64,000 bases of DNA from Gemmatimonadales bacterium. Lineage in GTDB: Bacteria > Gemmatimonadota > Gemmatimonadetes > Gemmatimonadales > GWC2-71-9. The stretch covers positions 10,911 to 74,910 of the forward strand of contig JBBDNM010000062.1 of assembly GCA_040877595.1 (NCBI GenBank). Reading direction: 5' to 3'. Of this stretch, positions 36,061 through 51,387 are shown piece by piece. The notes beneath the pieces are model-generated. The model ran no database searches. It saw nothing but the letters and a program-made list of their open reading frames with translations, and was not told the DNA's origin. Numbering within the stretch: the stretch's first letter is position 1; every line of letters begins with the position of its first letter. The position numbers were made by a program, and so were the translations under genes.

Positions 36061-36906
36061 CTAAATCTCAAACCAGCTCTGATATAGATCCGCCCGCCGA
36101 TCCCGCCAAAACAACGTCTTCGCCGGTGACGCCTGGTTCGCATCCAGATCCACGGTGCAGACGAGGAGATCTTCCTCGAGCCGCTTCCCGCGCGCCACCA
36201 CAGCGCCCGCCGCGTCTACCACGAACGATTCGCCGGCAAACGTGAGCTTCTCCTCGACGCCTACGCGGTTGCACAGCGCCGCCACGTAGCCGTTCTGGAA
36301 CGCCGCCGTCCGCACCTCGGCTTCGAACAATCCCTCCGGCCATTCATCCAGCGCGCCGGCCTGCGGAATGATCACGACCTCCGCCCCGCCAAGTGCGAGG
36401 GCACGCATGTACTCCGGGTAGTGACGGTCGTAGCAGATGGCGACAGCGATCTTGCCCACCGCCGTGTCGTACACCGGCGCGCCGGTGTCACCCTGATCGT
36501 AGTACTGCTGCTCGTGAAAACAGGCGTACTCGGTGATATGCAGCATGCGGGTGACGCCGAGCAACGTGCCATCGGCGTCGAACACGGGGGAACTGTCGTA
36601 GCAACGGTCGCCGGCCTGCTCGTACAGGTTGAAGACGGTGACCAGCCCAAGCGCCCTGGCCGCGGCCGCGATGCGTTGGGTCGTGGGGCCGGGAATCGGC
36701 TCCGCCAGCGCCCGCGCCCCGCCGTATCCCTCGTGTTGCGGGAAGAACCGCGTGACCGCGAGCTCGGGAAACGCGATGAGACCGGCACCCAGCGCGTGGG
36801 CGCGACGCATGGCGTCGAGCGCCTTGTCGAGATTGACGGCCGGGTCGGCGTCCGCCGCGAGCTGCGCCAAGGCCAGCGTGACGGTCCGGCCCGCCTCCCG
36901 TCTCAC
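36061..36906 (-). CDS. Carbon-nitrogen hydrolase (nitrilase superfamily)
   Basis: ..VTLALAQL.., ..LIAFPELAVTRF.., ..KIAVAICYDRHYPE.. (catalytic Cys context) and ..IIPQAG... The chosen start is GTG at complement(36904..36906) inside the heptamer array. The upstream 162 codons of the track ORF are rejected because they overlap the hemoglobin gene in another frame. Confidence 0.8.
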   Translation of the reverse strand: MRREAGRTVTLALAQLAADADPAVNLDKALDAMRRAHALGAGLIAFPELAVTRFFPQHEGYGGARALAEPIPGPTTQRIAAAARALGLVTVFNLYEQAGDRCYDSSPVFDADGTLLGVTRMLHITEYACFHEQQYYDQGDTGAPVYDTAVGKIAVAICYDRHYPEYMRALALGGAEVVIIPQAGALDEWPEGLFEAEVRTAAFQNGYVAALCNRVGVEEKLTFAGESFVVDAAGAVVARGKRLEEDLLVCTVDLDANQASPAKTLFWRDRRADLYQSWFEI

Positions 36907-36962
36907 GTCTCCCGTCTCCCGTCTCCCGTCTCCCGTCTCCCGTCTCCCGTCTCCCGTCTCCC
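36897..36962. repeat. Direct heptamer array (cccgtct / GGGAGAC on minus strand), 9 units + 3 nt, no inverted partner
   Basis: Eight consensus units and one variant unit cacgtct (36904-36910). It encodes the hemoglobin tail GRRETGDGRRETGDGRRET. The variant unit supplies the minus-strand GTGA, which is the hemoglobin stop (36903-36905) and the candidate nitrilase start (36904-36906). The minus strand is a (G3N4)n G4 motif. Confidence 0.9.
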
Positions 36963-37421
36963 AACGATCTCCGCCCGCACCGCCCGCAGAATCGCATCCA
37001 ACTCGCGCCGCTCTCGCGTGGGGATGCCGAACGCATCGAACGTGGCAAGCAAATGCTGCACCGCGACGTTCCATACAGCCGGCGTTATCTCCATCTCGGC
37101 GTGCGCGGTCGCCATGTCGAGACCCACGTAGAAGCACGGGCCGCCGGCGGCCGCACAGAGCTGATCGACCACCATCTGGCGAACGTAGCGCATCCCGTCC
37201 GTATCGAGGTGTGCAAAGAACGGTCCCAGGATGGAATCCTGGTGCCAGCGACCCATGAAGTCGTCGACGACGGCGGCGATCGCATCGTAGCCGCCGAGCC
37301 GGCGATACAGCGTGCCGTCGGCTGGGGGGCCGGCCGCGGATGGGGCAGGGGGCGCGGAGGCTGCAGGTCCTGCACCGCGGCAAGCCAGACACATGAGGAC
37401 GCTGAAGAGCACGATGCGCAT
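36903..37421 (-). CDS. Truncated hemoglobin (group I trHb-like) with N-terminal signal-like hydrophobic segment
   Basis: Start MRIVLFSVLMCLACRGAG is ATG at complement(37419..37421), 11 nt after the kinase stop. The core is ..TLYRRLGGYDAIAAVVDDFMGRW..D..LGPFF..D....R.MVDQLCAAAGGPCFYVG.DMATAHAEMEITPAVWNVAVQHLLATFDAFGI.., matching the 2-on-2 globin pattern. Confidence 0.75.
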   Translation of the reverse strand: MRIVLFSVLMCLACRGAGPAASAPPAPSAAGPPADGTLYRRLGGYDAIAAVVDDFMGRWHQDSILGPFFAHLDTDGMRYVRQMVVDQLCAAAGGPCFYVGLDMATAHAEMEITPAVWNVAVQHLLATFDAFGIPTRERRELDAILRAVRAEIVGRRETGDGRRETGDGRRET

Positions 37422-37432
37422 AGACGATCCGC

Positions 37433-39226
37433 CTAGAAGGGAAACAGTTTGCGCAGGCGCGGGAGCGGGTTGAATCGCGGTCGTCGCATGGCCGCCTGCA
37501 CCGCCTGACGGAAGCGCTCGGCCGACGGGTACCGCATCTCGGCGTCGCACGAGGCCGCGGTCAGCAGGACCCGCACGAACTCGGGCGGGACATCGTCCCG
37601 CGCGGCGCGAATATCCGGCAACAGGCCGGCATTCTGCCGCGCCAGAATGGCCTCGATCGTGCCTCTCCCGAACGGCGGCTGCCCGGTGAGGGCAAAGATC
37701 GCCACGAGCGCCAGCGAATAGAGGTCGGCCCTGAGATCCACGGCCTCGCCCATCAGTTGCTCGGGCGCCGCGAACTCCGGCGTGCCCGAGCGGGAGTGGT
37801 GACGCGAAGGTTGCCCGGCGGTCACGGTCAGCGCCAGACCGAAGTCGGTGATGAGGGCGTCGCCCGATCGGCGCTCCAAAAGCACGTTCTCAGGTTTCAG
37901 GTCGCGATGCACCAGCCCACGCTGGTGCGCGTGCTGGAGCGCATCGAGACTCTGCAACAGGAGCTTCACCGCGCGGGCTACTGGCAGCGGTCCGTGCTGG
38001 CGCACATGTTGCGCCACGTTCTCGCCCGGGACGTACGCCATTTCGTACCAGATGAACCCACCGCGCCCGCCCGTGCCGTACACATCCACGATGTGGGGAT
38101 GACTCAGGCTGGCGGCGAGGCGCGCCTCGCGCACGAAGCGCTCCACAACATCCGGATGGGCCGTGAGACCCGTATGCAGCACCTTGAGCGCCACTTCGCG
38201 CTCCAGCGACAGATCCCGCACCAGGTACACGCGACCGAACCCACCCGCGCCGAGTTCGCCCAACAGCTCGTAGTCGTCGCCCAGGGCACGGCGGAGCCGT
38301 TTCTCCGTCTGGGCTGCGTCGTCGCCGGTGGGCGGGCCGACATGGGTGTGGAACTCGAGGTCGCCGAGGTCGGACACCAGGTCCTCGCCCATCTCGTGGG
38401 CGGAGAGGAACCGGGTGCTGGGGCTGGCCTGCAGTGCGCGGAGGATGACACGCTCCAGCGCCTGTGGCGTGCTGGCCCGCCGTTCGCGCGGTGGGATCAA
38501 CAGGGCCGGCTCCGCTTCAGGAGCATGTCCCGTGGCCGCGAAGTACAGCAGGGCGCCCGCGGTGTACACGTCGGCGGTCGGGTCCCCGGCCGCGCCATTG
38601 CGCACTTCCGGCGCAAGGAACGGCAGGGCTTCGTTCGCGACGATCGGGACATCGGCCACATCCATGCAGCGGTTGGCCCACCGCAGGTCCGTGATCACGG
38701 CGCGGCCCAATCGGTCGAGCATGAGGGACTCGGGCGTGATTCGCCGAACCACGATTCCGGTGGAGTGCACGTGGTCGAGCGCGCCGATCAGGTCGCGTGC
38801 CAGCTGGAGTACGGCGGGCAGGGGCCGCGGTGCGCGGTCCACCGCACTGGCCAGGCTTTCGCCGTCAATCCATTTGCTGACGCGGTAGGCCCAGTCGCCC
38901 CGGTACCCGGCGGAGAACACCGGCCGTACGCCCGAATGATCCACCAGTGCGAGCAGCTCGCCTTCGCGCACGAACCAGTCGCGCCCCGCGCCCTGGGGTT
39001 CGAGATGAACTCGCAGGGCCACGCGCCGCTTGAGTACCGCATGGCGGGCCCGGAAGAGCGCGCGCACCTCGTTGGCGGCCACCAGTTCCTCCAACTCGAA
39101 GAACCCGGCGAACACGCCCTCGGCCCGCGTAAACAGGCGGGGAGCGTCAACGGTCGGCAGGACCTGCGGCTGGGACGGCCGAGAGGGTCGAGAAGGTTGG
39201 GAGGGGGCGGCCATGGATGAAAGCAA
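37433..39226 (-). CDS. Tandem pseudokinase + Ser/Thr protein kinase (Hanks type)
   Basis: The C-terminal domain has GAGGFGRV, VALKV, HRDLKPEN, DFG and APE. The N-terminal domain aligns to it with VAANEVRA (no Gly loop), VALRV (Lys to Arg), VVRRITPES (HRD..K..N lost), DLR (DFG) and retained APE. The start is uncertain (ATG 39226 or 39214) because it abuts the divergent gene. Confidence 0.85.
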   Translation of the reverse strand: MLSSMAAPSQPSRPSRPSQPQVLPTVDAPRLFTRAEGVFAGFFELEELVAANEVRALFRARHAVLKRRVALRVHLEPQGAGRDWFVREGELLALVDHSGVRPVFSAGYRGDWAYRVSKWIDGESLASAVDRAPRPLPAVLQLARDLIGALDHVHSTGIVVRRITPESLMLDRLGRAVITDLRWANRCMDVADVPIVANEALPFLAPEVRNGAAGDPTADVYTAGALLYFAATGHAPEAEPALLIPPRERRASTPQALERVILRALQASPSTRFLSAHEMGEDLVSDLGDLEFHTHVGPPTGDDAAQTEKRLRRALGDDYELLGELGAGGFGRVYLVRDLSLEREVALKVLHTGLTAHPDVVERFVREARLAASLSHPHIVDVYGTGGRGGFIWYEMAYVPGENVAQHVRQHGPLPVARAVKLLLQSLDALQHAHQRGLVHRDLKPENVLLERRSGDALITDFGLALTVTAGQPSRHHSRSGTPEFAAPEQLMGEAVDLRADLYSLALVAIFALTGQPPFGRGTIEAILARQNAGLLPDIRAARDDVPPEFVRVLLTAASCDAEMRYPSAERFRQAVQAAMRRPRFNPLPRLRKLFPF

Positions 39227-41354
39227 AGCTAATCTGGTCGGGGGCCGCTGCGCGCTGTATGTTCGCCATCACATGGCCTATCTCCGACTCCACGATCTCC
39301 GTGACCACAGCCGGATCGAGTTCGACGACGTGGCACTGGTCCGCGTTGGTCGCGATCCCTCCTCCGAGTTCGTGGTGGCGGGACCGGGCAGCGAAGTCGT
39401 CTCGGGATCGCATGCCCGGTTCACGCACCGCGACGGTGCGTGGTATGTCGAAGATGCGGGTGGTCGCAACGGCACGTTCGTGAAGGGCACCCGCGTGACG
39501 CCCGAAGCCCCATTGCGGCTCACGGCGGACGTGGAAATCCGTTTTGGCCAGCAGGGGCTGCGGTTTCAGGTCGAGGCCGTGACCAAACGGATCATCGCCG
39601 AGACCATCGCGGAGGCTCCAGTACGCGCGGTGGACCCGGAGAGGACGGCGCCCATGGACGCGGTGGATATCCCGGCGCCGCCGCCGCCACCGAAACCGGT
39701 TCCGCCACCGCCGCCGCCCCCGAAGCCGGCTCCGCCGCCGCCACCCAAGGCGCCAGAACCACCGAAGCCGCCGTCCGGCCTGGTGGTCACGCTGCGGCAC
39801 GGTGCCAGCGGCAACACGTTCACGGGGCAGGGGGGACGCCAGCGGATTGGTCGCGGGCGGGAGTGTGAACTGCGACCGGTGGAGCCGGGTGACGCCGCCG
39901 TGTCGCGGGTGCACGCCGAGATCGTGCAGAAGCCCGATGGATCGGTCGTGTTGCGGGATGCCCAGAGCCGGAACGGCACCCTGCTCAACGGCCAACGTGT
40001 GGAGGGCGAGCGTCCCGTCAACGTCGGGGATCGCATTCAGCTCGGTGATCACGGACCGGAGCTGGTGGTGGAATCCCTCACGGGCGCGGCATCCGTCGCA
40101 GCGTCCGCGGCCCCGCCTCCGCCGCGTCCGGTGGTGGTCTCGGGCGCCCCGAAGGACTCACGACGCTCGTTCGCGGGGAAGGGGCGCACGCTCTTCTTCA
40201 AGGATTTGATTCAGGAGACGGAGCGCAAGAGCCGGGATCGGGTCCGCGCGATTGTGTGGACGTTCGTTGTGCTGCTCGCCGGAGCGGCCGGCGGCCTGTG
40301 GTGGGTTGGTGAGCTCCGCGTGCGGGGGACCGAGGCCGTGCTCGAGGCGCAGCGCCTGGCCGCTGACTCGGTCAGTCAGGCGGCGCAAGCGGAGGTGCGC
40401 CGCCTCACGTCCGAGATCCTTGCCGCGCGCGCCGGGTCGGCACCGGTGGCAGTGCTCGATTCCCTCCGGAACGCGCTGTCCTCCGCCGAACGACGCACCA
40501 CGCAGCTCGAAGGCGCGCTCGCGCGCTCGCAGGCGTTGATCACTGAACAGCTGGCCTCCGGCGATTCGCTGCGCGTGGCCGCCGAGCGGGAAACCGCGCG
40601 GCTGCGGCAGCAGCTCCAATCGGGGGGTGGGAGCGGCTCCAGCGCCGCGCTCGACAGCATTCGCGCGGCGATGCGCGCGGCGGAGGAACGCGCCGCCGAG
40701 CTGGAGGCAGGGCTCCGGGCCGTGCGCGGCGTGGATCTGGCGCACATCGCCGAGCGGAATCAGGCCGCCGTCGGACTGGTCACGGCCTTCTCAGCGGGCG
40801 GCGCCTTTGATGGATCCGGATTCGTGCTCACCGCCTCCGGGTATCTCGTCACCAACCGGCACGTGGTGACGCCCGATGGCCGGCGCGCGGATTCGGTGCA
40901 CGTGATGATGGCGGACCAGCAAACACCGTTCCGCGCGGACATTATCGCCGTCGCGGATGCCCAGGGACCCGATCTGGCGGTGCTCCGGTTGCGTAGCTAC
41001 TCCGGCGCGCGCATCGCGGCAGTGGATTGGCGCGGCGATGCGGCACGCCAGGGTGAACCGGCTGCCTCCATTGGCTTCCCGACGGGCATTGCCGCCGCCT
41101 ACGACCAGACCACCCGCACCGTGCGCACCTCCCTGAGCGGTGGATACTTCTCAAAAGTGTCCGAAGACATGATCCAGTACGATGGATTCACGGTCCCGGG
41201 GTCGAGCGGCAGTCCGATCTTCAACGCCTCCGGGACGGTCGTGTCGGTGCATGCCCGGGGCTTGCGTGAAGGGCCGGGCTTGGCGTTCACCGTGCCCATT
41301 CGTCTGGTGCTTCCCCTCTTGCCAGCGGAGGCGCGTCGCGAACTGGGGCTGTGA
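39213..41354 (+). CDS. FHA-FHA / TM / coiled-coil / trypsin-like (S1) serine protease
   Basis: FHA1: ..VGRDPSSEFVV..VSGSHARF..WYVEDAGGRNGTFVKG... Pro-rich linker PPPPPKPVPPPPPPPKPAPPPPPK. FHA2: ..IGRGRECEL..VSRVHAEI..LRDAQSRNGTLLNG... TM: IVWTFVVLLAGAAGGLWWV. About 150 aa of Ala/Arg/Glu/Leu-rich helix. Protease triad contexts TNRHV, DLAVLRL and GSSGSPIF. The start is ATG 39213 or ATG 39273. Confidence 0.85.
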   Translation: MDESKANLVGGRCALYVRHHMAYLRLHDLRDHSRIEFDDVALVRVGRDPSSEFVVAGPGSEVVSGSHARFTHRDGAWYVEDAGGRNGTFVKGTRVTPEAPLRLTADVEIRFGQQGLRFQVEAVTKRIIAETIAEAPVRAVDPERTAPMDAVDIPAPPPPPKPVPPPPPPPKPAPPPPPKAPEPPKPPSGLVVTLRHGASGNTFTGQGGRQRIGRGRECELRPVEPGDAAVSRVHAEIVQKPDGSVVLRDAQSRNGTLLNGQRVEGERPVNVGDRIQLGDHGPELVVESLTGAASVAASAAPPPPRPVVVSGAPKDSRRSFAGKGRTLFFKDLIQETERKSRDRVRAIVWTFVVLLAGAAGGLWWVGELRVRGTEAVLEAQRLAADSVSQAAQAEVRRLTSEILAARAGSAPVAVLDSLRNALSSAERRTTQLEGALARSQALITEQLASGDSLRVAAERETARLRQQLQSGGGSGSSAALDSIRAAMRAAEERAAELEAGLRAVRGVDLAHIAERNQAAVGLVTAFSAGGAFDGSGFVLTASGYLVTNRHVVTPDGRRADSVHVMMADQQTPFRADIIAVADAQGPDLAVLRLRSYSGARIAAVDWRGDAARQGEPAASIGFPTGIAAAYDQTTRTVRTSLSGGYFSKVSEDMIQYDGFTVPGSSGSPIFNASGTVVSVHARGLREGPGLAFTVPIRLVLPLLPAEARRELGL

Positions 41355-42082
41355 ACTGCGTCGTGGTGGTGCATCGGTCGCAGAACATCATCAACCTCGC
41401 GTCCATCGTGCGGTTGATGAAGAACTATGGCCTGCGCGACCTCCGGCTGGTGGAACCAGCCGAGTTCGATGTCCGCCGCATCGAGGGGGTGGCGCACCAG
41501 TCGGGTGATGTGCTCAAGCGCGTGCAGGAATTCCCCACGCTCGACGCTGCCCTGGCCGACTGCACGCACGTCGTGGCCCTCACCGCGCGCGGACGTACGG
41601 CCAAGCGGAACTACCAGCGCCCCCGTGACGCGGCGCCCGAGATCCTCGCCGAGAGTGCTCACGGTCTCGCGGCGCTCGTACTGGGCCCGGAGGACAAGGG
41701 ATTATCCAATGACGACCTGGACCGCTGCCACCGCGCTGTCGTGATTCCGACGCATCCGGACTATCCCTCCCTCAACGTCGCGCAGGCATTCAACGTCATG
41801 GCGTACGAGCTGTTCGTGGCCGCCGATGCCGCCGCGCCGCTCAAGCCGGCCAAGCGGGAGGCCGAACCCGCCAGCCGCGATCAGGTGGAACGCCTCTTCG
41901 TGGACGTTGAAGCGGCGTTGCACCGCGTGGATTTCTTCAAGGCGCGCGAACCCGAGCTGATCCTGCGTTCGATCCGCACGATGGTGCACCGGACGCCGCT
42001 CGACGGGCGGGAGACGACCCTGCTGCGGGCGATGGCCCTGGAAGTGGTGCGCTATCTCGATCGCGTCGAGGCGCGCGCATGA
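41351..42082 (+). CDS. SpoU/TrmH-family RNA 2'-O-methyltransferase (TrmJ/LasT-like)
   Basis: ..VVVVHRSQNIINLASIVRLMKNYGL.., ..ALVLGPEDKGLSNDDL.. and ..IPT...YPSLNVAQAFNVMAYEL.. are SPOUT motifs. GTGA overlap with the protease gene and ATGA overlap with the following kinase. Confidence 0.8.
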   Translation: MNCVVVVHRSQNIINLASIVRLMKNYGLRDLRLVEPAEFDVRRIEGVAHQSGDVLKRVQEFPTLDAALADCTHVVALTARGRTAKRNYQRPRDAAPEILAESAHGLAALVLGPEDKGLSNDDLDRCHRAVVIPTHPDYPSLNVAQAFNVMAYELFVAADAAAPLKPAKREAEPASRDQVERLFVDVEAALHRVDFFKAREPELILRSIRTMVHRTPLDGRETTLLRAMALEVVRYLDRVEARA

Positions 42083-44061
42083 AGGAGCGGCCCAAGCGCT
42101 GCACCCAGTGCGGGCGCGAAGCGCCGGGGGACCTGTTCCGCTGCCCCAACTGTCAGGTGTGGTTGCCGGCGCAGAGTGCCACCGACCGGCTGGCGGCGCG
42201 TGTGTCGGCCGCGTTGGGCGAGGGGTACCGTCTGGAAGAACAGATGGGGCGCGGCGGGTGCGCGATGGTGTTTCGCGTGCGGGACCTGCGTCTCGAACGG
42301 GACTTGGCCATCAAGGTCCTGTTGCCTGCCTTGGCCGGTAGCGAGGAACTGGCGGCGCGCTTCCGGCGCGAGACGCGTGTCGCCGCCGGATTGTCGCATC
42401 CCAATATCGTCCCCATCTATTTCCTGGGACCTGACGACGGGTTGCCGTGGTTTGCCATGCCACGCGTCCATGGGGAGTCGCTCGCCGACCGCATGAAGCG
42501 TGAGGGCCCCCAGCCGTATGCCGTGGCCCTGGGCATTGCGCGCGATGTCGCCGCGGCCCTCGATGCCGCACACGCCACCGGCGTGATCCACCGTGACGTC
42601 AAGCCGGCCAACATCCTGCTCGAACTGGCCACCGGGCGGGCGCTGCTCACGGACTTCGGGATCGCCAAGGCGATGAGCGGCGACGCCAACTTCCGCACGG
42701 CGTCCGGCATCGTGGTGGGCACGCCGTACTATGTGTCGCCCGAGCAGGCGGCCGCCGACCCGAACGTGGACGGCCGGAGCGACGTGTACAGTCTCGCGGT
42801 GGTGCTGTACGAAATGCTGGCGGGGGAGCCGCCGTTCACCGGGCCGTCGGCGCAGGCGGTATTTGCGGCCCATCAGGCCGGAACCGTACCGCCTCTCGTC
42901 ACCAAGCGGCCGGACCTGCGTCCTGCCGTGGCTGACACGCTGATCGCGGGCTTGGCCAAGGACCCGGCACATCGCCCAGGCACGCCGAGCGAGCTGGTGG
43001 CCCTCATCGAGCGGGCGCAGGGCCGGGCCAGTCTGCGCCGCTCCGGCGCCACCATCGTGCCGCGGATGTCCCTGGACGATCCGCACTTGTTCCGGTCGGC
43101 TGACGCCGCCGGTCACGATCCCCTGAATCCCGAGGGTGAGTTGCCGGTGTGGATCGAGGCGGTGGCCGAGACGGAGCGAACCATCGAAGCGGCCCTGGCC
43201 CAGGGGCCGGAGCAGGTTGTGGAGGCGGTGGCGCGCCTTGCCCGACATACGGGACTTGAGCGCGCCGCGTATCGCAACCCGGTGGAGACCGCCCTCCAGC
43301 GTCTGGGTGAACGTGCGGAACTGGTCGCCATACTCATTGATGTGTGGCAGCGCGGGGTGGGCCGCGATCCCGCCACCATCGAGCAGCATGTGCGCGCGCT
43401 GTTGCCTGCGGCGCGCCGAGCCCTGGTGGACCTGGCCGACCAGCGCCGTGATCCGGCGGTGTTTCTGCTGCTGGACCGGTTGGGGCTGCTGGATGAGGCC
43501 GCCGGCCGCTCGTTCGCCGAGCATCGCAGTCCCGCGGTTGCGCAGGCGTTTGCCGAAGCGCTCAGGGAGAGCACCCGGGCGGGCGCCGTGGTGGAAGGAT
43601 GGTTGCTGCGGTTGGCCCGACACGAATCCGCGGCCGTGCGGGTCGCGGCGGGGTCCACGGCCGCGGCAAGGCGCGGGGCGGTGGCCACGGTACTGGGGCG
43701 GCACCTGGTTTCGGACAAACAGCCCGTGGTGCGCCGGGCCGGACTCGCGGTCCTCGGTGCGTCGGGTCGCCGGGACGCCATCGTGGATCTGGATGGGACG
43801 CTCAAGCGGGGGGATCGGGATGACAAGCTCGCGGCGATCGAAGCGCTGGCAGCCCTGGGCTTGGCCGAGGTCGTGCCAGTCCTGGCCGCCATCCTCAGCG
43901 GACGTTCGATGTTTGGTGGGTCGGGTCACGCCGTGCTTCGGCGGGCGGCTGCCCGGGCCCTGTCCACACTCCCGCACGAGGCCGCCCGAACGGCCCTGGC
44001 CGCCTGCCGAGACGATAAGGACGACGAGGTCCGGGCGCTGGCCCGTTCGGTAGTTGTGTGA
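42079..44061 (+). CDS. Ser/Thr protein kinase with N-terminal zinc ribbon and C-terminal HEAT-like repeats
   Basis: CTQCG..x..CPNC ribbon. Kinase motifs GRGGCAMV, AIKVL, HRDVKPANILL, DFG and SPEQ. The C-terminal ~300 aa are Ala/Arg/Leu-rich repeats (..DDEVRALARS.., ..AIEALAALG..). Confidence 0.88.
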   Translation: MKERPKRCTQCGREAPGDLFRCPNCQVWLPAQSATDRLAARVSAALGEGYRLEEQMGRGGCAMVFRVRDLRLERDLAIKVLLPALAGSEELAARFRRETRVAAGLSHPNIVPIYFLGPDDGLPWFAMPRVHGESLADRMKREGPQPYAVALGIARDVAAALDAAHATGVIHRDVKPANILLELATGRALLTDFGIAKAMSGDANFRTASGIVVGTPYYVSPEQAAADPNVDGRSDVYSLAVVLYEMLAGEPPFTGPSAQAVFAAHQAGTVPPLVTKRPDLRPAVADTLIAGLAKDPAHRPGTPSELVALIERAQGRASLRRSGATIVPRMSLDDPHLFRSADAAGHDPLNPEGELPVWIEAVAETERTIEAALAQGPEQVVEAVARLARHTGLERAAYRNPVETALQRLGERAELVAILIDVWQRGVGRDPATIEQHVRALLPAARRALVDLADQRRDPAVFLLLDRLGLLDEAAGRSFAEHRSPAVAQAFAEALRESTRAGAVVEGWLLRLARHESAAVRVAAGSTAAARRGAVATVLGRHLVSDKQPVVRRAGLAVLGASGRRDAIVDLDGTLKRGDRDDKLAAIEALAALGLAEVVPVLAAILSGRSMFGGSGHAVLRRAAARALSTLPHEAARTALAACRDDKDDEVRALARSVVV

Positions 44062-44148: not shown

Positions 44149-44736
44149 ATGGCGAAGTGGGTCAGGCCCATGGCCAAGGCAAGCGGCGTGCTGATGACCG
44201 GCGCCCTCCTTGTGGTCCTGGTCGGCGCCATGCAGACCAGCCAAACCGCGCCGTCGGCGACGATGCAGTCGTTCGAGCCCTTCCAGGCCCCGCGCGACGT
44301 GGACACCACCAACCTCCGTGGCCCGCGCCAGCCGATTCTTTACCGTCACGACATTCATGCCGGCCAGTACCAGATGGATTGCCGGTACTGCCACGGGTAC
44401 GTCGAGGTCAGCAGCAGTCCCGGCCTGCCCTCCACGGCGGTCTGCATGGGCTGTCATATGGTCGTCCAGACCCAGAGCCCGGAAGTACAGAAGCTGGCGG
44501 AGGCCCATAACAGCGGCACGCCCGTGGAGTGGGTAGAGGTCCACGAGCTCGCGCAGTTCGTCCGCTTCCCACACCAGCGGCACGTCGTGGCCGGCCAGGT
44601 GGCCTGCCAGGAGTGCCATGGCCCGGTGCAAGAGATGGTGCAGGTCTGGCAGTTCAGCTCGCTCAAGATGGGTTGGTGCCTTGACTGCCATAAAGAGCGC
44701 GGTCAGACCACCGACTGCACGGCCTGCCACTACTAA
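44149..44736 (+). CDS. actA: Alternative complex III subunit ActA (pentaheme cytochrome c)
   Basis: Five CxxCH motifs (CRYCH, CMGCH, CQECH, CLDCH, CTACH) and an N-terminal TM anchor. First gene of the act-type order. Confidence 0.88.
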   Translation: MAKWVRPMAKASGVLMTGALLVVLVGAMQTSQTAPSATMQSFEPFQAPRDVDTTNLRGPRQPILYRHDIHAGQYQMDCRYCHGYVEVSSSPGLPSTAVCMGCHMVVQTQSPEVQKLAEAHNSGTPVEWVEVHELAQFVRFPHQRHVVAGQVACQECHGPVQEMVQVWQFSSLKMGWCLDCHKERGQTTDCTACHY

Positions 44737-44748
44737 GAGGACCGACCA

Positions 44749-47736
44749 ATGACCGACGGGATGGACCGACGGAAGTTCCTCAAGGTGCTGGGCGTCACCG
44801 GTGGCGGTACCGCGGCGTTGGCGGGCTGCTCCACGGATGACGTGGCCAAGCTCATTCCGTATATGGTGCCGGTGGAAGACCAGATCCCAGGGGTCGCCAC
44901 CTACTACGCCTCGACCTGCCGCGGATGTGCCGCCGGGTGCGGCGTCCACGTCAAGGTCCGCGAGGGCCGGGCGGTGAAGCTCGAGGGCAACCCCGAGGCG
45001 CCCATCAATCGCGGCAAGCTCTGCGCCCGCTCGCAGGCCTCGCTCCAAGCCACGTATCACCCCGATCGCAACCGCTCCGCGATGATGCGCCAGGGCGAGG
45101 GGCTCGCGCCGGCCGAGTGGGAAGCGGCGCTGGCGGAAGTCGCCACCCGCCTGCAGGCGGCTCCGGCCGGGTCCGTGTGGTTCATGCACGGCACGCAGAC
45201 GGGCTCGCTGGACGCGTTGATCGGGGAGTTCGTCACGGCCATCGGCGGTCGCCGCCTGGTGTTCGAGGCATTTGCCCACGAAGCGGTGCGGCACGCCAGC
45301 CGTGAGACGTTCGGCCGCGACGAAGTGCCGCTGTATCGGTTTGCCGACGCGCAGTACATCCTGTCGTTCGGCGCCGACTTCCTCGAAACGTTCATGAGCC
45401 CCGTCGAGTACACGCGGGGCTTTGCCGACGCCCACGGCTACCGCGACGGGCGCATGGCCAAGTACGTGCATATCGAGCCGCGCATGAGCGGCACGGCCAT
45501 GAGCGCCGACGAGTGGATCGCGCCGACGCCCGGCTCGGAAGGCACGCTGGCCCTGGCGATGGCGCAGGTGATCGTCGAACGCGGGCTCGGCCGCCCGCCG
45601 GCGGACGCGCGCTCATTGCGGGCGGCCCTGGCGTCGTTCACGCCCGACCTGGCGGCGCAGGCCACCGACATTGATGCCGCCACGATCACGCGGCTCGCCC
45701 AGGAGTTTGCGGCGGGCCCAAGCGTGGCCCTGCCGGGCGGCATCGGGACCCAGCATGCCGACGCGCATCGCACGGCGGCCGCGGTCAACGTGCTCAACTA
45801 CGTGGCCGGCAACATCGGCCACACGGTCGAGTACGGCCACGGACTCCGCCAGGGCGATGGCTACGCCACGTTGCGGGAGTTCACGGTCGCTGCCGAGGCG
45901 GGCAGCATTCAGGTGTTGCTGATCCACGACGCGAATCCGGTGCATGCGAGCCCGAGCGCGCTGAATGTGAGCGGTGCACTCGGCCACATTCCGTTCGTCG
46001 CGAGCTTCAGCCGGTTCCAGGACGAGACGTCGGCCTGGGCCCACGTGGTCCTGCCCGATCACGATGCGATGGAACAGTGGAATGACTGGCAGCCCCGCGC
46101 CGGCGTGCAGATGCTGCTCCAGCCGGCCATGGCGCCGGTGTTCGACACGCGCCAGACCGGTGATGTCCTGCTCGACCTGAGCCGCCGGATGGGTCGCACC
46201 CCGCGCCAGGCCACCTACAAGGAATACGTGCAGGCGCGCTGGGCCGATCTGCAGCGTACCCTCGGCGATCGCGCGCCGTTCGACACGTTCTGGCGCAACG
46301 CCCTCCAGCGGGGCGGGGTATGGACCGAAGCGCGTCCCGCCACCGTACGGTTAGCGGCGGGCGCCACACGCGTCACGAATCCCGCGTGGGCACCGACCGA
46401 AGGCCAACTCACGCTGATCGCCTACCCATCGTCCACGTTCTATGACGGTCGCGATGCGCACGTGCCGTGGCTGCAGGAACTGCCCGATCCCGTCACCAAG
46501 ATGACCTGGGGATCGTGGGTCGAGATTCATCCCGACACGGCTGACCGGTTCGGGATCATGGAAGGTGACGTGGTGCAGGTGACGTCGGCGCAGGGCACGG
46601 TGGCAGTGCCCGCCTACCTCTACCCCGGCTTGCGCCCCGATGTGGTCGCGATGCCGCTGGGCCAGGGGCATACGGCCTACACGCGCTACGCCACCGGCGT
46701 CGGTGTGAACACGTGGTCGCTGTTGCCGGGTGAAGCGGCGGTGTTCGGTGGTGCCCAGCATTACGTGTCGGTGTCGCTCACGCGCACCAGCCGCCACGAG
46801 CGCCTGGCCAAGACCGAGGGCCGCAATCGCCAGCTGGGTCGCGGGATCGCGCAGGCCGTCACGTTGGGCGGCATCGCCCACGGGGCGCTGGACCACCCGT
46901 TCCACGTGGCGCACGCGGCCCCGGTGCCCGAGCGCGAGGAACACCTGCTTGATGAAGTGGCCGCGGCCCAACGGCGCGCCACGGACTATGGCCCCTACGC
47001 CCTGCGCAACACGCGCTGGGGCATGACGATTGACCTGTCGCGCTGCACGGGCTGTAACGCCTGTGTGGCGGCGTGCAGCGCCGAGAACAACGTGCCGTAC
47101 ATCGGTGCCGAGCAGGTACGCCGCGGCCGCGCGATGCAGTGGATCCGTATCGAGCGGTACTTCGAGGGCGGCGAGCACGGCGAGCCGCTGGAGACCCGCT
47201 TCGTGCCGATGCTGTGCCAGCACTGCGGCAACGCCCCCTGCGAGCCGGTCTGCCCGGTGTTCGCGGCGTACCACACGCCGGACGGCCTGAACGGCCAGGT
47301 GTACAACCGCTGCGTCGGCACGCGGTACTGCGGCAACAACTGTCCGTACAAGGTCCGCTACTTCAACTGGTATGACATGTCGGAACCCGGCGCGCCCAAG
47401 TTTGCCTGGCCGGACCCGATGCATTGGATGCTCAATCCCGACGTGACCGTGCGGTCCCGGGGCGTCATGGAGAAGTGCACGTTCTGCGTCCAGCGTATTC
47501 GCGGGGCACAACACCGGGCCGCGACGGAGGGTCGCGCGCTGGTGGATGGCGAAGTGCGCACCGCGTGCCAACAGACCTGCCCGGCGGACGCCATCACCTT
47601 CGGCAACATGATGGACCCGGAAGCCCAGGTCACGCGGACGGCCGCCGACCCGCGCGGGTATCGCGTGCTCGAGGGACTCAACACCAAGCCCGCGGTGACG
47701 TACCTGATGAAGGTACGCCACCTCGAGGAGGCCTGA
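44749..47736 (+). CDS. actB: Alternative complex III subunit ActB (molybdopterin-oxidoreductase-like + 4Fe-4S ferredoxin fusion)
   Basis: Tat signal MDRRKFLKVLGV. N-terminal MopB-like domain with ..CRGCAAGCGV... C-terminal Fe-S cluster motifs CTGCNACVAAC, CQHCGNAPCEPVCP, CVGTRYCGNNCPY and CTFC..C..CP. Confidence 0.9.
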   Translation: MTDGMDRRKFLKVLGVTGGGTAALAGCSTDDVAKLIPYMVPVEDQIPGVATYYASTCRGCAAGCGVHVKVREGRAVKLEGNPEAPINRGKLCARSQASLQATYHPDRNRSAMMRQGEGLAPAEWEAALAEVATRLQAAPAGSVWFMHGTQTGSLDALIGEFVTAIGGRRLVFEAFAHEAVRHASRETFGRDEVPLYRFADAQYILSFGADFLETFMSPVEYTRGFADAHGYRDGRMAKYVHIEPRMSGTAMSADEWIAPTPGSEGTLALAMAQVIVERGLGRPPADARSLRAALASFTPDLAAQATDIDAATITRLAQEFAAGPSVALPGGIGTQHADAHRTAAAVNVLNYVAGNIGHTVEYGHGLRQGDGYATLREFTVAAEAGSIQVLLIHDANPVHASPSALNVSGALGHIPFVASFSRFQDETSAWAHVVLPDHDAMEQWNDWQPRAGVQMLLQPAMAPVFDTRQTGDVLLDLSRRMGRTPRQATYKEYVQARWADLQRTLGDRAPFDTFWRNALQRGGVWTEARPATVRLAAGATRVTNPAWAPTEGQLTLIAYPSSTFYDGRDAHVPWLQELPDPVTKMTWGSWVEIHPDTADRFGIMEGDVVQVTSAQGTVAVPAYLYPGLRPDVVAMPLGQGHTAYTRYATGVGVNTWSLLPGEAAVFGGAQHYVSVSLTRTSRHERLAKTEGRNRQLGRGIAQAVTLGGIAHGALDHPFHVAHAAPVPEREEHLLDEVAAAQRRATDYGPYALRNTRWGMTIDLSRCTGCNACVAACSAENNVPYIGAEQVRRGRAMQWIRIERYFEGGEHGEPLETRFVPMLCQHCGNAPCEPVCPVFAAYHTPDGLNGQVYNRCVGTRYCGNNCPYKVRYFNWYDMSEPGAPKFAWPDPMHWMLNPDVTVRSRGVMEKCTFCVQRIRGAQHRAATEGRALVDGEVRTACQQTCPADAITFGNMMDPEAQVTRTAADPRGYRVLEGLNTKPAVTYLMKVRHLEEA

Positions 47737-47737
47737 G

Positions 47738-49075
47738 GTGATGGCTACCGGGAAGGCCCCTCAGCCCACGTACGCCGAGATCACCCGCGATATCGCGGCC
47801 ACCCTCGGCAATCCGGGCAAAGGGTATTACGCCCTGCTCACGACCGCCGTCGTGCTCTTCCTGGCGGGCGCGATCACGGTCCTGCTCGAGGTGCGCTATG
47901 GCCTCGGGCTCGCGGGCTACCGCACGCCGGTCTTCTGGGGTGTGTACATCACGACCTTCGTCTTCTGGGTCGGCATCGCGCACTCGGGCACGCTGATCTC
48001 GGCGATCCTGTACCTGTTCCGGTCGGCGTGGCGCACGGCGGTGTACCGCACCGCGGAAGCGATGACAGTCTTCGCGGTGCTCACCGCCGGCCTGTTTCCG
48101 CTGATCCATGTCGGGCGCATGTGGTACGCGTACTGGCTGATCCCGTACCCGAACCAGCGGCAACTGTGGGTCAACTTCAAGTCGCCGCTCATCTGGGACG
48201 TGTTCGCCGTCTCGACGTATCTGACCGTGTCCACGCTCTTCCTGATGGTCGGCCTGATCCCGGATATCGCGTCGCTGCGTGACAAGGCGACCGGCTGGCG
48301 CAAGAAGCTGTACCAGGCCACCGCACTCGGCTGGCGCGGCACCGACCAGCAGTGGCGCCACTACACCAAGGCCTACATGTACATGGCCGCCCTGGCCACG
48401 CCGCTCGTGCTCTCCGTGCACAGCGTCGTGTCCTGGGACTTCGCCATGGCCATCGTGCCCGGCTGGCACGCTACCATCTTCGCCCCGTACTTCGTGGCGG
48501 GCGCCATTTACTCCGGCGTCGCGATGGTGATCACCCTGCTGGTGCCCATCCGGAAGGTGTTCAAGCTTGAGCGGTACATCCACGAAGATCATTTTGAAAA
48601 CCTGAGCAAGCTGATGCTCCTGACGGGCATGATCGTCGCGTATGCCTACGTCACGGAGTACTTCATCGCCTGGTACAGCGGGAACCCGTTCGAACAGGCC
48701 TCGTTCTGGAACCGCGCGTTCGGCGATTACTGGTGGGCCACCTGGACCATGCTGATCTGCAACGGCCTCCTGCCGTTGTTCCTGTGGTCCCGGAAGATCC
48801 GTCGCAGCATCCCGGCGCTGTTTGTCCTGTCGCTCTTCGTCAACCTCGGGATGTGGTTCGAGCGGTTCGTCATCATCGTCGTCTCATTGTCGTTCGAGTA
48901 TGAGCCCTATGCGATGGGCCATTACTCGGCCACCTGGGCGGACTGGCTGGTGCTGTCCGGCAGCTTCGGATGGTTCTTCATGTGGTTCCTGCTGTTCGCC
49001 AAGAACTTCCCGACCGTCTCGATCACCGAGGTGAAAGAAGTGATCCCGATGCCACGGAAGGGAGGAGCGCACTGA
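47738..49075 (+). CDS. actC: Alternative complex III subunit ActC (NrfD/PsrC-like membrane subunit)
   Basis: 445 aa polytopic NrfD-like protein. The start is GTG 47738 or ATG 47741, 2-5 nt after the actB stop. Confidence 0.88.
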   Translation: MMATGKAPQPTYAEITRDIAATLGNPGKGYYALLTTAVVLFLAGAITVLLEVRYGLGLAGYRTPVFWGVYITTFVFWVGIAHSGTLISAILYLFRSAWRTAVYRTAEAMTVFAVLTAGLFPLIHVGRMWYAYWLIPYPNQRQLWVNFKSPLIWDVFAVSTYLTVSTLFLMVGLIPDIASLRDKATGWRKKLYQATALGWRGTDQQWRHYTKAYMYMAALATPLVLSVHSVVSWDFAMAIVPGWHATIFAPYFVAGAIYSGVAMVITLLVPIRKVFKLERYIHEDHFENLSKLMLLTGMIVAYAYVTEYFIAWYSGNPFEQASFWNRAFGDYWWATWTMLICNGLLPLFLWSRKIRRSIPALFVLSLFVNLGMWFERFVIIVVSLSFEYEPYAMGHYSATWADWLVLSGSFGWFFMWFLLFAKNFPTVSITEVKEVIPMPRKGGAH

Positions 49076-49581
49076 TGTCGGCGCATCCCGGCGGCGTGCT
49101 CGCCGCCTTCCTCCATGAAGACGCGGCGGTGTCGGCCATCCGCTCGCTCAAGGAACTGGGCTACAAGGACTTCACGGTCTATTCGCCGGCGCCGAATCAC
49201 GCGCTGATGGAGGCCGTGGGCCACAAGATCAGCCCGGTCCGGCTCTGGACCCTGGTCGGCGGTCTGGTTGGCGTGACCTCGGGGTTTGCCATGACCATCT
49301 GGATGTCGCTGGATTATCCGATCGTGGTGGGGGGCAAGCCGATTCCGTCGTGGATCCCGTACGTCGTGATCGGGTTCGAGTTGACCATCCTGATTGGCGC
49401 CATCGCCACGCTGACGGGGTTGGCGGTGCACATCCTGCTGACCCGGAAGGCGGCCGCCTACGATCCCCGGTTTACCGATGACCAGATCGGCGTGTTCGTG
49501 CCGTGCCCCACGGAACGGCGCGGCGCCGTGGAACAGATGCTCAATGCCGCGGGAGCGGTGGAGGTGCGCGTTGCCGCGTAA
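49075..49581 (+). CDS. actD: Alternative complex III subunit ActD (DUF3341-like)
   Basis: MSAHPGGVLAAFLHEDAAVSAIRSLKELGYKDFTVYSP.. followed by two TM helices. The ATG shares a base with the actC stop (TGATG). The upstream 35 codons of the track ORF are rejected. Confidence 0.85.
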   Translation: MSAHPGGVLAAFLHEDAAVSAIRSLKELGYKDFTVYSPAPNHALMEAVGHKISPVRLWTLVGGLVGVTSGFAMTIWMSLDYPIVVGGKPIPSWIPYVVIGFELTILIGAIATLTGLAVHILLTRKAAAYDPRFTDDQIGVFVPCPTERRGAVEQMLNAAGAVEVRVAA

Positions 49582-49585
49582 ACCC

Positions 49586-50137
49586 ATGCTCGCCGTCATC
49601 GCCGCGGTCCTGCTGCTGAGCGGATGCACCCGAGACCAGTGGCAGCGGTTCCCGGGGCCGGATGAAGCCGTCAAGCTGATCCCGCTCTTTGCCACCATGA
49701 CCAGGGGCCTCGCGGTGCAGCCGTACAAGTGGCCCACGCCGCGCCCGCCGGTCGAAGGCACCGTCCCGGTGACGGGGGGCGAGGCGCCGACCCCAATTAC
49801 CAACCGGCCCGACGATCTCGCGCGCATCAACGCGCTGCGGAACCCGGTGCAGATGACCGCGCTGTCGCTCGAACGGGGCCGCGAGCGGTACGACATCTAC
49901 TGCACGCCCTGTCACGGTGCGATGGGTGATGGTCAGGGGCCGGTGCCGGTCGGCACCAACCTGCCGTGGGTGCCGAGCCTGCTGACGCCGATCGCAGCGC
50001 GGCATTCCGACGGCATGCTGTATGCCATCACGCGCCACGGCCGGGGCCTGATGCCTGCCTATGGTGATCGCCTGCGCGGCGAGGACCGGTGGCACGTGGT
50101 CAACTACGTGCGCCAGCTCCAGGGAGCCGCCCGATGA
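49586..50137 (+). CDS. actE: Alternative complex III subunit ActE (monoheme cytochrome c lipoprotein)
   Basis: Lipobox LLLSG|C and a single CTPCH heme motif. An alternative TTG start at 49571 would add MPRKP. Confidence 0.85.
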   Translation: MLAVIAAVLLLSGCTRDQWQRFPGPDEAVKLIPLFATMTRGLAVQPYKWPTPRPPVEGTVPVTGGEAPTPITNRPDDLARINALRNPVQMTALSLERGRERYDIYCTPCHGAMGDGQGPVPVGTNLPWVPSLLTPIAARHSDGMLYAITRHGRGLMPAYGDRLRGEDRWHVVNYVRQLQGAAR

Positions 50138-51387
50138 GCGCCCCCGTGAATCATGCGGACGCCTACGCGCGGGCGGCCCACGCGCCGGCCGGTGGCATGC
50201 TGCTGGTGGGCGCGATCCTTGCCGTCATCGGCACGGGCGCGTTCCTCGTGCTGACGCACGGTGAGCAGCATCATCTCGCCTGGCAGCTCTTCCTCGTCAA
50301 CTTCGTGTTCTTCACGGGGCTCTCGACGGGCGCGGTCATCTTCGCCGCCGTGCAGAAGATCACCAAGGGCAAGTGGTCCGGCCCGATCGTCCGGTTCGCC
50401 GAAGCCGGCGTGGCGTTTCTCCCCGTGGCCGTCCTCGGGTTCCTCGTGCTGTGGATCGGGCGCGACCATCTGTTCCCGTGGATCGACAGCCCGACCCCCG
50501 CCCGCGGGCCGTGGCTCACCGAAGGGTTCGTGTTCTGGCGCGATCTGCTGAGCCTGGTCATCGTGATGCTGGTGTCCATCCGCTTCGTCATGCTCGACCT
50601 GCGCCCCGACCTGCTGCCGCTGCGGGATGCGGCGACCGGACTCAAGCGCATGAAGTACGATTTCATCCTCGGGAACTACACCGGCACGCCGGAGCAGGTG
50701 GCCCAGAACGAGCACAAGATTCACTGGTTGGCGCCGGTCCTGGTGTTGCTGTACGCCTACCTGTACTCGCTGCTGGCGTTCGACCTCATCATGTCGCTCG
50801 CGCCCTACTGGATCAGCAACCTGTTCGGCGCCTACTATTTCATGGGGTCGTTCCTGACCGGGCTCACCATGCTGGCCATGATGACCCTGTACTGGCGCAA
50901 GACGCTGGGTCTGGAGCAGTTGATCGGTCGCCAGCAGTTCCATGACCTGGGCAAGCTGATCTTCGGCTTCACGGTCTTCTGGGCGTACCTCACGTACAGC
51001 CAGGTATTGGTGATCTGGTACGGCAACCTGCCTGAGGAAACCGCGTTCCTGTTCTGGCGTATCTTCGGTGAGTGGCAGCCGGTCACCATCATGGTGGGCC
51101 TGATGGTGTTCGCCATCCCGTTCTGGGGGCTGATCTGGGTCAAGTCCAAGACCACGCCGCTCACGTTCGGCCTGTTCGCGTTGATCAGCTTTAGCGGCAT
51201 GTGGCTGGAGAAGTACGTGCAGGTGGTGCCCTCGTACGGCGCGCGTGAAACGCTCGGCCTCCCGGCCGTCCTGATCACGCTCGGGTTCCTCGGCCTGTTC
51301 CTGCTGAGTTATGGGGCGTTTGCGAAGATGTTCCCCATGGTAAGCCCCCGTCTGGCCGAGCAGGTGAAAGAGATGGTGCACCACTAG
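50134..51387 (+). CDS. actF: Alternative complex III subunit ActF (second NrfD-like membrane subunit)
   Basis: Polytopic protein. ATGA overlap with the actE stop (ATG 50134). The upstream 15 codons of the track ORF are rejected. Confidence 0.85.
   Translation: MSAPVNHADAYARAAHAPAGGMLLVGAILAVIGTGAFLVLTHGEQHHLAWQLFLVNFVFFTGLSTGAVIFAAVQKITKGKWSGPIVRFAEAGVAFLPVAVLGFLVLWIGRDHLFPWIDSPTPARGPWLTEGFVFWRDLLSLVIVMLVSIRFVMLDLRPDLLPLRDAATGLKRMKYDFILGNYTGTPEQVAQNEHKIHWLAPVLVLLYAYLYSLLAFDLIMSLAPYWISNLFGAYYFMGSFLTGLTMLAMMTLYWRKTLGLEQLIGRQQFHDLGKLIFGFTVFWAYLTYSQVLVIWYGNLPEETAFLFWRIFGEWQPVTIMVGLMVFAIPFWGLIWVKSKTTPLTFGLFALISFSGMWLEKYVQVVPSYGARETLGLPAVLITLGFLGLFLLSYGAFAKMFPMVSPRLAEQVKEMVHH

Follow-up and report, generated by a model that had tools for sequence, protein, structure and literature searches.

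How could a bacterium control, by phosphorylation inside the cell, a protease that works outside its inner membrane? This question is raised by a gene of a Gemmatimonadales bacterium, located on the forward strand of contig JBBDNM010000062.1. The stretch analysed here, to which we refer as the window, comprises 64,000 nucleotides (positions 10,911 to 74,910 of the contig), and all coordinates below are those of the window unless a homologous locus is named. The gene encodes two FHA domains, a single transmembrane helix, a helical stalk and a trypsin-like serine protease. Since the periplasm has no adenosine triphosphate (ATP), only few mechanisms are known by which bacteria govern its enzymes from the cytoplasmic side. 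Moreover, the Ser/Thr kinases of bacteria are mostly seen as sensors that signal from the outside in, or as regulators of targets in the cytoplasm. Our results support a bitopic inner-membrane protein that would carry a phosphothreonine-reading module in the cytoplasm and a protease in the periplasm. By analogy with the mycobacterial transporter Rv1747, which is discussed in the final paragraphs, we consider it an even bet (a probability of roughly 50%) that this protein acts in the periplasm as a protease under the control of a Ser/Thr kinase, in which case the binding of FHA domains to phosphothreonines would lead to clustering.

The open reading frame runs on the plus strand from 39273 to 41354 and encodes 693 amino acids plus a stop codon (41352-41354). 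An earlier note on this DNA, made from the sequence alone, had placed the gene at 39213-41354. The frame and the end of this assignment hold, but the start had to be corrected. In an alignment of 119 full-length relatives, the N-terminal start falls at the motif MPxLRLRD, which corresponds to the ATG at 39273, and an identical NCBI protein (P0001, 'FHA domain-containing protein [Gemmatimonadales bacterium]') has a length of 693 amino acids. For these two reasons, we take the ATG at 39273 as the real start, and residue numbers are counted from it. The ATG at 39213 is in frame, but the additional 20 residues are not conserved; it overlaps with the ATG of the divergent kinase gene within the palindrome CCATGG.

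From the N- to the C-terminus, the protein consists of FHA1, a proline-rich disordered linker, FHA2, a juxtamembrane motif, the transmembrane helix, the helical stalk and the protease. AlphaFold2, run on the family alignment, gave a model (mean predicted local distance difference test score, pLDDT, of 84) in which both FHA domains and the protease are folded with confidence, two linkers are disordered and one helix of 83 residues crosses the membrane. A chance occurrence of motifs is excluded, because matches at the level of profiles, and not isolated motifs, are kept across the whole family.

FHA1 (39273..39578, plus strand, residues 1-102) and FHA2 (39783..40082, plus strand, residues 171-270) can be assigned to the FHA family by profile, by key residues and by predicted fold, and both are predicted to bind phosphothreonine. 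Pfam FHA (PF00498) matches the two stretches with an E value of 3.5e-32 and 111.1 bits, versus a gathering cut-off of 20.7. AlphaFold2 predicts multi-strand beta domains at residues 1-102 and 171-270 (pLDDT 91-97), with a beta-sandwich of pLDDT 95-97 for FHA1. The phosphothreonine-binding residues are G26-R27, S44..H47 and N66-G67 in FHA1, and G193-R194, S211..H214 and N234-G235 in FHA2. Hence, the signature residues (Gly-Arg, Ser-x-x-His, Asn-Gly) that the earlier note had seen twice can be located in both domains, and they are invariant or at least 90% conserved among 96 relatives with 47-59% identity to the query. This alignment of 96 relatives underlies all conservation counts given below. 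Conservation of the phosphothreonine-binding residues of both FHA domains at such levels of identity argues for selection on phosphopeptide binding.

The protease domain (40770..41351, plus strand, residues 500-693) is HtrA-like (S1C-like) according to Pfam, to phmmer searches of the PDB and to Foldseek. It matches Pfam Trypsin_2 (E 1.6e-22), the solved proteases Deg1, HtrA, MucD, AlgW and DegS in the phmmer search (E 1e-11 to 1e-5), and DegP, DegQ, HtrA1 and DegS in Foldseek (E about 1e-13). The triad consists of H530 (40860-40862, in the context TNRHV), D567 (40971-40973, DLAVLRL) and S645 (41205-41207, GSSGSP). It aligns with the catalytic residues of Deg1, Thermotoga maritima HtrA and MucD, and is invariant in the 96 relatives. 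The earlier claim that these three contexts are intact thus withstands a careful alignment, and the residues support a catalytically intact, HtrA-like domain. Pfam gave no match to a PDZ domain, and in the AlphaFold2 model the chain ends at residue 693 within the last helices of the protease. Scores for the NCBIfam models degP_htrA_DO (59.4 bits versus a cut-off of 416.2) and DegS (31.3 versus 423) were both below the cut-off. Because the PDZ domain is absent and the scores are far below the curated cut-offs, we call the domain HtrA-like and do not regard it as a member of HtrA.

On which side of the membrane do these domains reside? A single transmembrane helix was detected by Kyte-Doolittle hydropathy at 40251..40307 (plus strand, residues 327-345, IVWTFVVLLAGAAGGLWWV), in good agreement with the one helix previously seen at about 40240-40310. 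Its 19-residue mean hydropathy is 1.91 (family mean 1.98, in 119 relatives), and in the AlphaFold2 model it is embedded in one continuous predicted helix that extends from residue 305 to 387. Hydropathy over the same 119 relatives revealed no N-terminal hydrophobic or signal-peptide-like segment. Flanking lysine and arginine residues number 4.0 on the N-terminal side versus 2.5 on the C-terminal side, and the N-terminal side has the higher number in 80% of the relatives. In addition, the FHA domains should be cytoplasmic because they are readers of ATP-dependent phosphorylation. The single transmembrane helix, the lack of a signal peptide, the positive-inside bias and the phospho-reading by FHA domains together support an N-in/C-out topology, which would therefore place the protease domain in the periplasm. 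Hence, the prediction favours the arrangement that had been proposed, with the FHA domains inside and the protease outside. A cytoplasmic protease was rejected on the grounds of the strong and conserved transmembrane helix in combination with the positive-inside bias.

The membrane and the protease are separated by a periplasmic helical stalk (40308..40769, plus strand, residues 346-499; 154 amino acids), which was delimited by AlphaFold2, periodicity and repeat scores. The earlier note had read this region as a coiled coil of about 150 residues. This reading is borne out in part. Residues 346-499 are predicted to be helical, and the longer helices have a hydrophobic periodicity of 3.5-3.6 residues, but in the AlphaFold2 model the helix is interrupted by conserved hinges at 388-391 and 452-456, yielding helices at 305-387, 392-451, 457-486 and 489-499. 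According to profile self-comparison, the stalk consists of two tandem units of about 65 residues (about 362-427 and 428-492), and the hinges occupy equivalent positions in both units. Repeat offsets of 66 and 65 scored 23.9 and 20.7, whereas the maximum after column shuffling was 7.7, and a motif alignment revealed two DSLR-type motifs per unit (D365 and D396, D431 and D461). As judged from these repeats, the stalk is not a generic coiled coil but repeat-built; that it forms a coiled coil is probable. Its length in the two-FHA family has a median of 162 residues (5th-95th percentile 155-166). Rare variants depart from this range, with about 30-50 or about 175 residues. The stalk may act as a structural spacer, since about 150 helical residues would span roughly 20 nm if extended.

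The inter-FHA linker (39579..39782, plus strand, residues 103-170) is proline-rich and largely disordered, with pLDDT values below 50 for residues 108-136 and 157-165. Within this otherwise variable segment, T125 (39645-39647) is found in all 96 relatives as part of the motif T-[VLA]-P-[ML], and T111 (39603-39605) in 91 of the 96 as part of the motif T-h-h-E. A second disordered segment (residues 271-300) follows FHA2. The juxtamembrane motif R297-R298-S299-F300-x-G302-K-G304-x-T306-x-F308 (40161..40196, plus strand) sits at the end of this disordered stretch, shortly before the transmembrane helix. Column counts for this motif are 96/96 for R297, S299, G302, G304, T306 and F308, 95/96 for R298 and 94/96 for F300. 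FHA domains select on the +3 position, and the residues found there after T125, T111 and T306 (M/L, E and F/V, respectively) are of the kinds that are selected. Because the linker threonines are invariant within disordered segments next to FHA domains, we read T111 and T125 as candidate phospho-acceptor and FHA-docking sites. Likewise, T306 and S299 are candidate phosphosites in the juxtamembrane motif. A 30-bp tandem repeat of 2.2 copies (39678-39742) encodes the PPPPPKP tract of the inter-FHA linker, and the length of this tract varies among relatives, as is apparent from gaps in the alignment.

If these threonines are phosphorylated, which kinase could be the writer? Divergently from the FHA-protease gene, on the minus strand, lies a gene for a soluble tandem pseudokinase-kinase (37433..39214), with two Pkinase stretches in Pfam. 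The C-terminal domain has the motifs of a canonical Ser/Thr kinase (GAGGFG, VALK, HRDLKPEN, DFG). The N-terminal domain has VALR instead of VAIK and VRR instead of HRD. Both motif patterns are conserved in 55 sequences (the protein of the window and 54 orthologs), and the N-terminal kinase-like domain can be regarded as a conserved pseudokinase because the catalytic lysine and the HRD motif are consistently absent. No transmembrane helix was found in the tandem kinase protein. Its layout of a pseudokinase followed by a kinase is JAK-like, here in a bacterial Ser/Thr kinase that is conserved across the Gemmatimonadota beside the FHA-protease gene. The two start codons are 58 bp apart, and this intergenic region (39215..39272) presumably holds a shared promoter region.

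Upstream neighbours were counted at the 63 loci with enough upstream DNA. The tandem pseudokinase-kinase was located upstream in a head-to-head orientation at 53 of these loci, and the distance from the start of the FHA gene to the start of the kinase alignment had a median of 151 nucleotides across loci. The other ten loci comprise two with partial kinase matches only and eight without an adjacent tandem-kinase match. The latter eight form a more distant subgroup, with 42-47% identity. At the seven of these eight loci with clear gene calls, the FHA-protease gene has 2-oxoacid dehydrogenase E1beta/E2 genes on one side and an S9/DPP-IV peptidase gene on the other, and all of these genes share one strand (L054 2339-12123; the same layout in L048, L050, L061 and L063, and partly in L040 and L062). 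In actinobacteria, 2-oxoglutarate dehydrogenase is under the control of FHA proteins, and the adjacency observed here may or may not be meaningful.

The earlier note described the gene as flanked by two kinases. This is literally true in the window, where a kinase-HEAT gene (42079-44061, plus strand) lies downstream, but only the divergent tandem kinase is conserved. Downstream genes are variable: a SpoU methylase gene comes next at 8 of 59 loci and the kinase-HEAT gene at only 1 of 59. The kinase-HEAT gene was therefore rejected as a conserved partner, despite the overlaps of the genes in the window. There, the FHA-protease gene is joined to the SpoU methylase gene, and the latter to the kinase-HEAT gene, by four-base stop/start overlaps at 41351-41354 (GTGA) and 42079-42082 (ATGA), which suggests co-transcription and translational coupling of the trio in this genome. 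The kinase-HEAT protein has an N-terminal CxxC...CxxC motif that resembles a zinc ribbon.

How widespread is this architecture? A profile search of 1.84 billion representative sequences retrieved 392 proteins at E <= 1e-30, and a genome scan found 221 encoding loci, of which the best 80 are all in metagenome-assembled genomes of Gemmatimonadota. The named protein matches are all from Gemmatimonadota as well. As far as sampled, the two-FHA family is restricted to this phylum. The combination of FHA and Trypsin_2 domains that had been noticed in a single gene is thus a family across the Gemmatimonadota, which is accompanied by variants with one and with three FHA domains.

The one-FHA sister family, annotated as 'trypsin-like peptidase domain-containing protein', has a length of about 470 amino acids and comprises at least 1,332 proteins at E <= 1e-10, with named members from Gemmatimonadota. 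It is homologous to the two-FHA protein from FHA2 through the C-terminus (hhalign probability 100%, E 7e-76). Because the paralog equals FHA2 through the protease, the core of FHA domain, transmembrane helix, stalk and protease appears to be an old conserved unit. The two families have the topology, the invariant triad and the linkage to kinases in common. In contrast to the two-FHA family, however, the one-FHA family lacks FHA1, the proline-rich linker and the invariant RRSFxGKG motif, and its stalk (median 105 residues) is about 57 residues shorter, which is roughly one repeat unit. Within each of the two families, stalk length is tightly conserved. The gene context differs as well. Whereas the two-FHA gene lies beside the tandem kinase, the one-FHA gene lies in a kinase/PP2C operon by peptidoglycan-recycling genes. 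At all three loci examined (L084 3015-8440; L085 2891-8428; L086 3049-8389), it is the last gene of an operon with the order Zn-ribbon-FHA, Pkinase, PP2C and FHA-transmembrane-protease. This operon is flanked by Amidase_3 and by NagZ-like GH3, AnmK and MurQ-like SIS genes of peptidoglycan turnover, a context that hints at a cell-wall role. The one-FHA paralog was not found within the window.

In a rare variant, three FHA domains precede the transmembrane helix and the protease (P0172, P0159 and P0392). A Ser/Thr kinase gene is located directly downstream of the gene for P0172 (L087 6001-9732). The amino-acid composition of the three-FHA variant, with fewer Ala, Gly, Arg and Pro and more Lys, Asn, Ile, Tyr and Phe residues, suggests an organism of lower guanine-cytosine content. 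Since linkage to a kinase recurs in three different gene arrangements, functional coupling is much likelier than inherited synteny. Among the weaker matches are other proteins (P0421, P0401 and P0413) in which FHA domains are joined to a membrane or extracytoplasmic effector, either an SLT lytic transglycosylase or an ABC transporter, and fusions of FHA domains to envelope enzymes may represent a broader theme.

From the observed domain composition, conserved residues, sequence-based topology evidence, phylum distribution and kinase-gene linkage, we infer the remaining parts of our model: which residues are phosphorylated, that copies cluster, in which direction the signal runs and what the protease cleaves. 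The cognate writer would be the soluble pseudokinase-kinase encoded head-to-head. It would phosphorylate T125, T111 and/or T306 of the fusion protein, or possibly its own pseudokinase domain. Binding between FHA domains and phosphothreonines of different copies would then cluster or oligomerise the fusion protein in the membrane, in a similar way to Rv1747 with its kinase PknF. The continuous helix formed by the juxtamembrane region, the transmembrane segment and the stalk would pass the assembly state on to the protease, thereby setting its activity or position in the periplasm. The functional form of HtrA proteases is a trimer or a higher oligomer, and since the PDZ sensor is absent here, clustering would be expected to set the assembly state of the protease. 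Signalling from the cytoplasm to the periplasm is plausible. A more elaborate version of the model is a dedicated Gemmatimonadota route, in which phosphates on the linkers cause FHA domains to cross-bind into trimers or clusters, so that a PDZ-less HtrA-type protease is switched on or moved, while a 'ruler' stalk holds it at a fixed height (about 20 nm if extended). In this full form, we advance the proposal only tentatively.

Several observations weigh against kinase-driven clustering. The lack of an adjacent tandem-kinase match at 8 of 63 loci implies that a dedicated neighbouring kinase is not obligatory. A PP2C phosphatase gene was not found within the window, and no conserved candidate substrate gene is present nearby, as the downstream genes vary among loci. 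Furthermore, HtrA domains without PDZ (e.g. DegS-deltaPDZ) can be active alone, so that regulation by clustering would not be needed.

A localisation or scaffolding role fits the data equally well as a mechanically linked inside-out device. In this case, the protease would be constitutively active, and the FHA domains would only tether it to a phosphorylated inner-membrane complex, for instance of cell-wall synthesis or division. The role of phosphorylation would then be to determine the place in the periplasm at which proteolysis occurs, and not the activity of the enzyme. FHA domains are commonly recruiters, as illustrated by the mycobacterial protein FhaA, which is recruited to the phosphorylated pseudokinase domain of MviN. 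Here, the conserved pseudokinase domain of the partner kinase could offer a docking platform, the conserved stalk length would suit positioning at a fixed height, and the operon of the one-FHA paralog adjoins the peptidoglycan turnover genes. However, the two-FHA family itself has no conserved cell-wall neighbours, and its partner kinase is a soluble protein rather than a membrane complex. Moreover, the invariant threonines in the protein's own linkers suggest self-recognition, rather than only recognition of other proteins. Taken as a complete explanation, pure tethering is the chief rival to our model, and seems to us a serious but minority possibility.

Alternatively, signals might travel in the opposite direction. 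The protease and stalk might sense envelope stress, such as unfolded proteins in a DegS-like manner, and alter the engagement of the FHA domains with phosphorylated partners in the cytoplasm. This would be in line with the stress sensors in the HtrA family, as the nearest relatives of solved structure include DegS, AlgW and MucD, and a continuous helix across the membrane could transmit in either direction. Yet, the peptide-sensing PDZ domain of DegS and AlgW is absent here. FHA domains are readers without catalytic output, so that a further effector would be needed, and none is evident nearby. The fully conserved triad, too, points to proteolysis as the output. In our view, an outside-in sensor is improbable.

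We also have little faith in a simple housekeeping role, that is, a membrane-anchored periplasmic quality-control protease in which the FHA domains are structural or of minor importance and the adjacent kinase merely reflects inherited synteny. Admittedly, the RND pump, CN_hydrolase and kinase genes upstream form a block that is syntenic as a whole in many loci, so that the adjacency could partly be phylogenetic inertia within one phylum, and the kinase is absent at eight loci. However, the conservation of the phosphothreonine-binding residues of both FHA domains at 40-59% overall identity argues for selection on phosphopeptide binding, and linkage to a kinase recurs independently, with different gene orders, in the one-FHA and three-FHA variants. 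Least likely is self-contained regulated proteolysis, in which the protease cuts the stalks of its neighbours and an intramembrane protease then frees the FHA-FHA module as a cytoplasmic signal: the conserved hinges at 388-391 and 452-456 could be cleavage sites, and the scheme would be analogous to the DegS/RseA pathway, with its two roles united in a single chain, but no linked site-2 protease gene was found at the loci examined, and the tight conservation of stalk length and repeats suggests a structural role.

The wider neighbourhood of the gene in the window includes RND pump, CN_hydrolase, globin, SpoU and alternative complex III genes, while other metabolic genes are found at other loci. 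The CN_hydrolase gene (36061-36900) and the globin-like gene (36903-37424) are both on the minus strand. A 7-bp tandem repeat, CCCGTCT, with 10.4 copies and 95% matches (36890-36962), is located at their boundary. Seven bases do not make up whole codons, and a gain or loss of copies would therefore alter the frame or the spacing. The product of the globin-like gene is a bacterial-like (truncated) globin whose N-terminus is hydrophobic and resembles a signal sequence (MRIVLFSVLMCLAC...); this protein could be exported or lipid-anchored. Further downstream, a cluster resembling alternative complex III (44149-51387) encodes a multihaem cytochrome c, a 995-residue molybdopterin/FeS subunit, an NrfD-like membrane subunit, a cytochrome c and a second NrfD-like protein.

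Gemmatimonadota are an abundant but poorly studied soil phylum, and the family described here marks unexplored biology of their envelope. Throughout the phylum, it joins phosphothreonine readers to an extracytoplasmic protease, with recurrent linkage to kinase and phosphatase genes. With T111, T125 and T306 as candidate sites and a defined partner kinase, the control of periplasmic proteolysis by phosphorylation can be put directly to the test in this family. Nature also provides variants with one, two or three FHA domains and with different stalk lengths, which can be used to ask how the number of FHA domains and the length of the stalk matter. If kinase-driven regulation is correct, the family would be the protease counterpart of inside-out control of the FtsEX-EnvC type, driven by Ser/Thr phosphorylation instead of ATP hydrolysis, and the one-FHA sister system would use this principle in the turnover of the cell wall.

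How does the protein compare with known systems? NCBIfam has no family-level model for the two-FHA protein, and databases annotate it generically. Our literature searches found no functional, structural or genetic study of the family, only an architecture listing from 2008. In that survey, the FHA-FHA-trypsin architecture was catalogued for Bacteroides thetaiotaomicron NP_811686.1 (Tripathi & Sowdhamini, 2008; PMC2605481). As far as this bare architecture listing goes, the Pfam domain order is the same as in our protein. The architecture is thus not unique to the protein studied here, which belongs to a phylum-wide, generically annotated family with a domain order listed before. What is new are the corrected start, the distribution over the phylum, the series of one, two and three FHA domains, the tandem-kinase partner, the candidate phosphosites and the repeat-built stalk.

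Components of secretion systems likewise combine a cytoplasmic FHA or FHA-like domain, a transmembrane helix and an extracytoplasmic part, as in YscD/PrgH/MxiG of type III, Fha/TagH of type VI and EssC/EccC of type VII secretion systems. Pfam Yop-YscD_cpl and NCBIfam TagH match our protein at the domain level, the latter with 76.8 bits versus a cut-off of 120.25. In contrast to the secretion components, however, the extracytoplasmic part is an enzyme rather than a ring-building or ATPase module, and the canonical phosphothreonine-binding residues are kept. No secretion-system genes are present nearby, neither in the window nor at the loci examined. A role as a type III or type VI secretion component can be ruled out from the absence of these genes and the score below the cut-off. 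A role in anti-phage defence was also rejected. PADLOC gave generic domain matches only (the protease part of RT-Protease_XI, and kinase models), and the gene belongs to the syntenic core genome across the phylum.

Two further parallels concern the two ends of the protein. DegS of Escherichia coli, AlgW of Pseudomonas aeruginosa and HtrA/PepD of M. tuberculosis have the N-in/C-out single-pass anchor, the chymotrypsin fold and the His-Asp-Ser triad in common with it, and proteases of the DegS/AlgW/HtrA type are the best matches to the protease domain in both sequence and fold. However, our protein has no PDZ domain, its protease is separated from the membrane by a repeat-built stalk of about 154 residues, and the short cytoplasmic tail of these proteases is replaced by a large FHA-FHA module.

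The cytoplasmic end resembles Rv1747 of M. tuberculosis, the nearest mechanistic analogy, in which two N-terminal FHA domains and a disordered linker are fused to an ABC transporter (PMC3138270, PMC8339232, PMC8573418). The threonines T150/T208 (T152/T210) in its inter-FHA linker are phosphorylated by PknF, encoded in the same operon, and bound by the FHA domains, and this phosphorylation activates and clusters the transporter (PMC3138270, PMC8339232, PMC8573418). Both proteins have two cytoplasmic N-terminal FHA domains, a disordered linker, a membrane effector and an adjoining Ser/Thr kinase gene. The phosphorylated linker threonines of Rv1747 have candidate counterparts in T125, which is invariant, and T111 (91/96), as known from sequence. 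Yet, there are clear differences. The effector here is a periplasmic Trypsin_2 protease on a stalk and not an ABC exporter, and the invariant juxtamembrane motif RRSFxGKGxTxF is additional. Furthermore, the kinase is soluble, tandem and divergently transcribed, whereas PknF is a membrane kinase from the same operon. By analogy with these two systems, the protein appears to combine a membrane-anchored HtrA-like protease with FHA regulation of the Rv1747 type.

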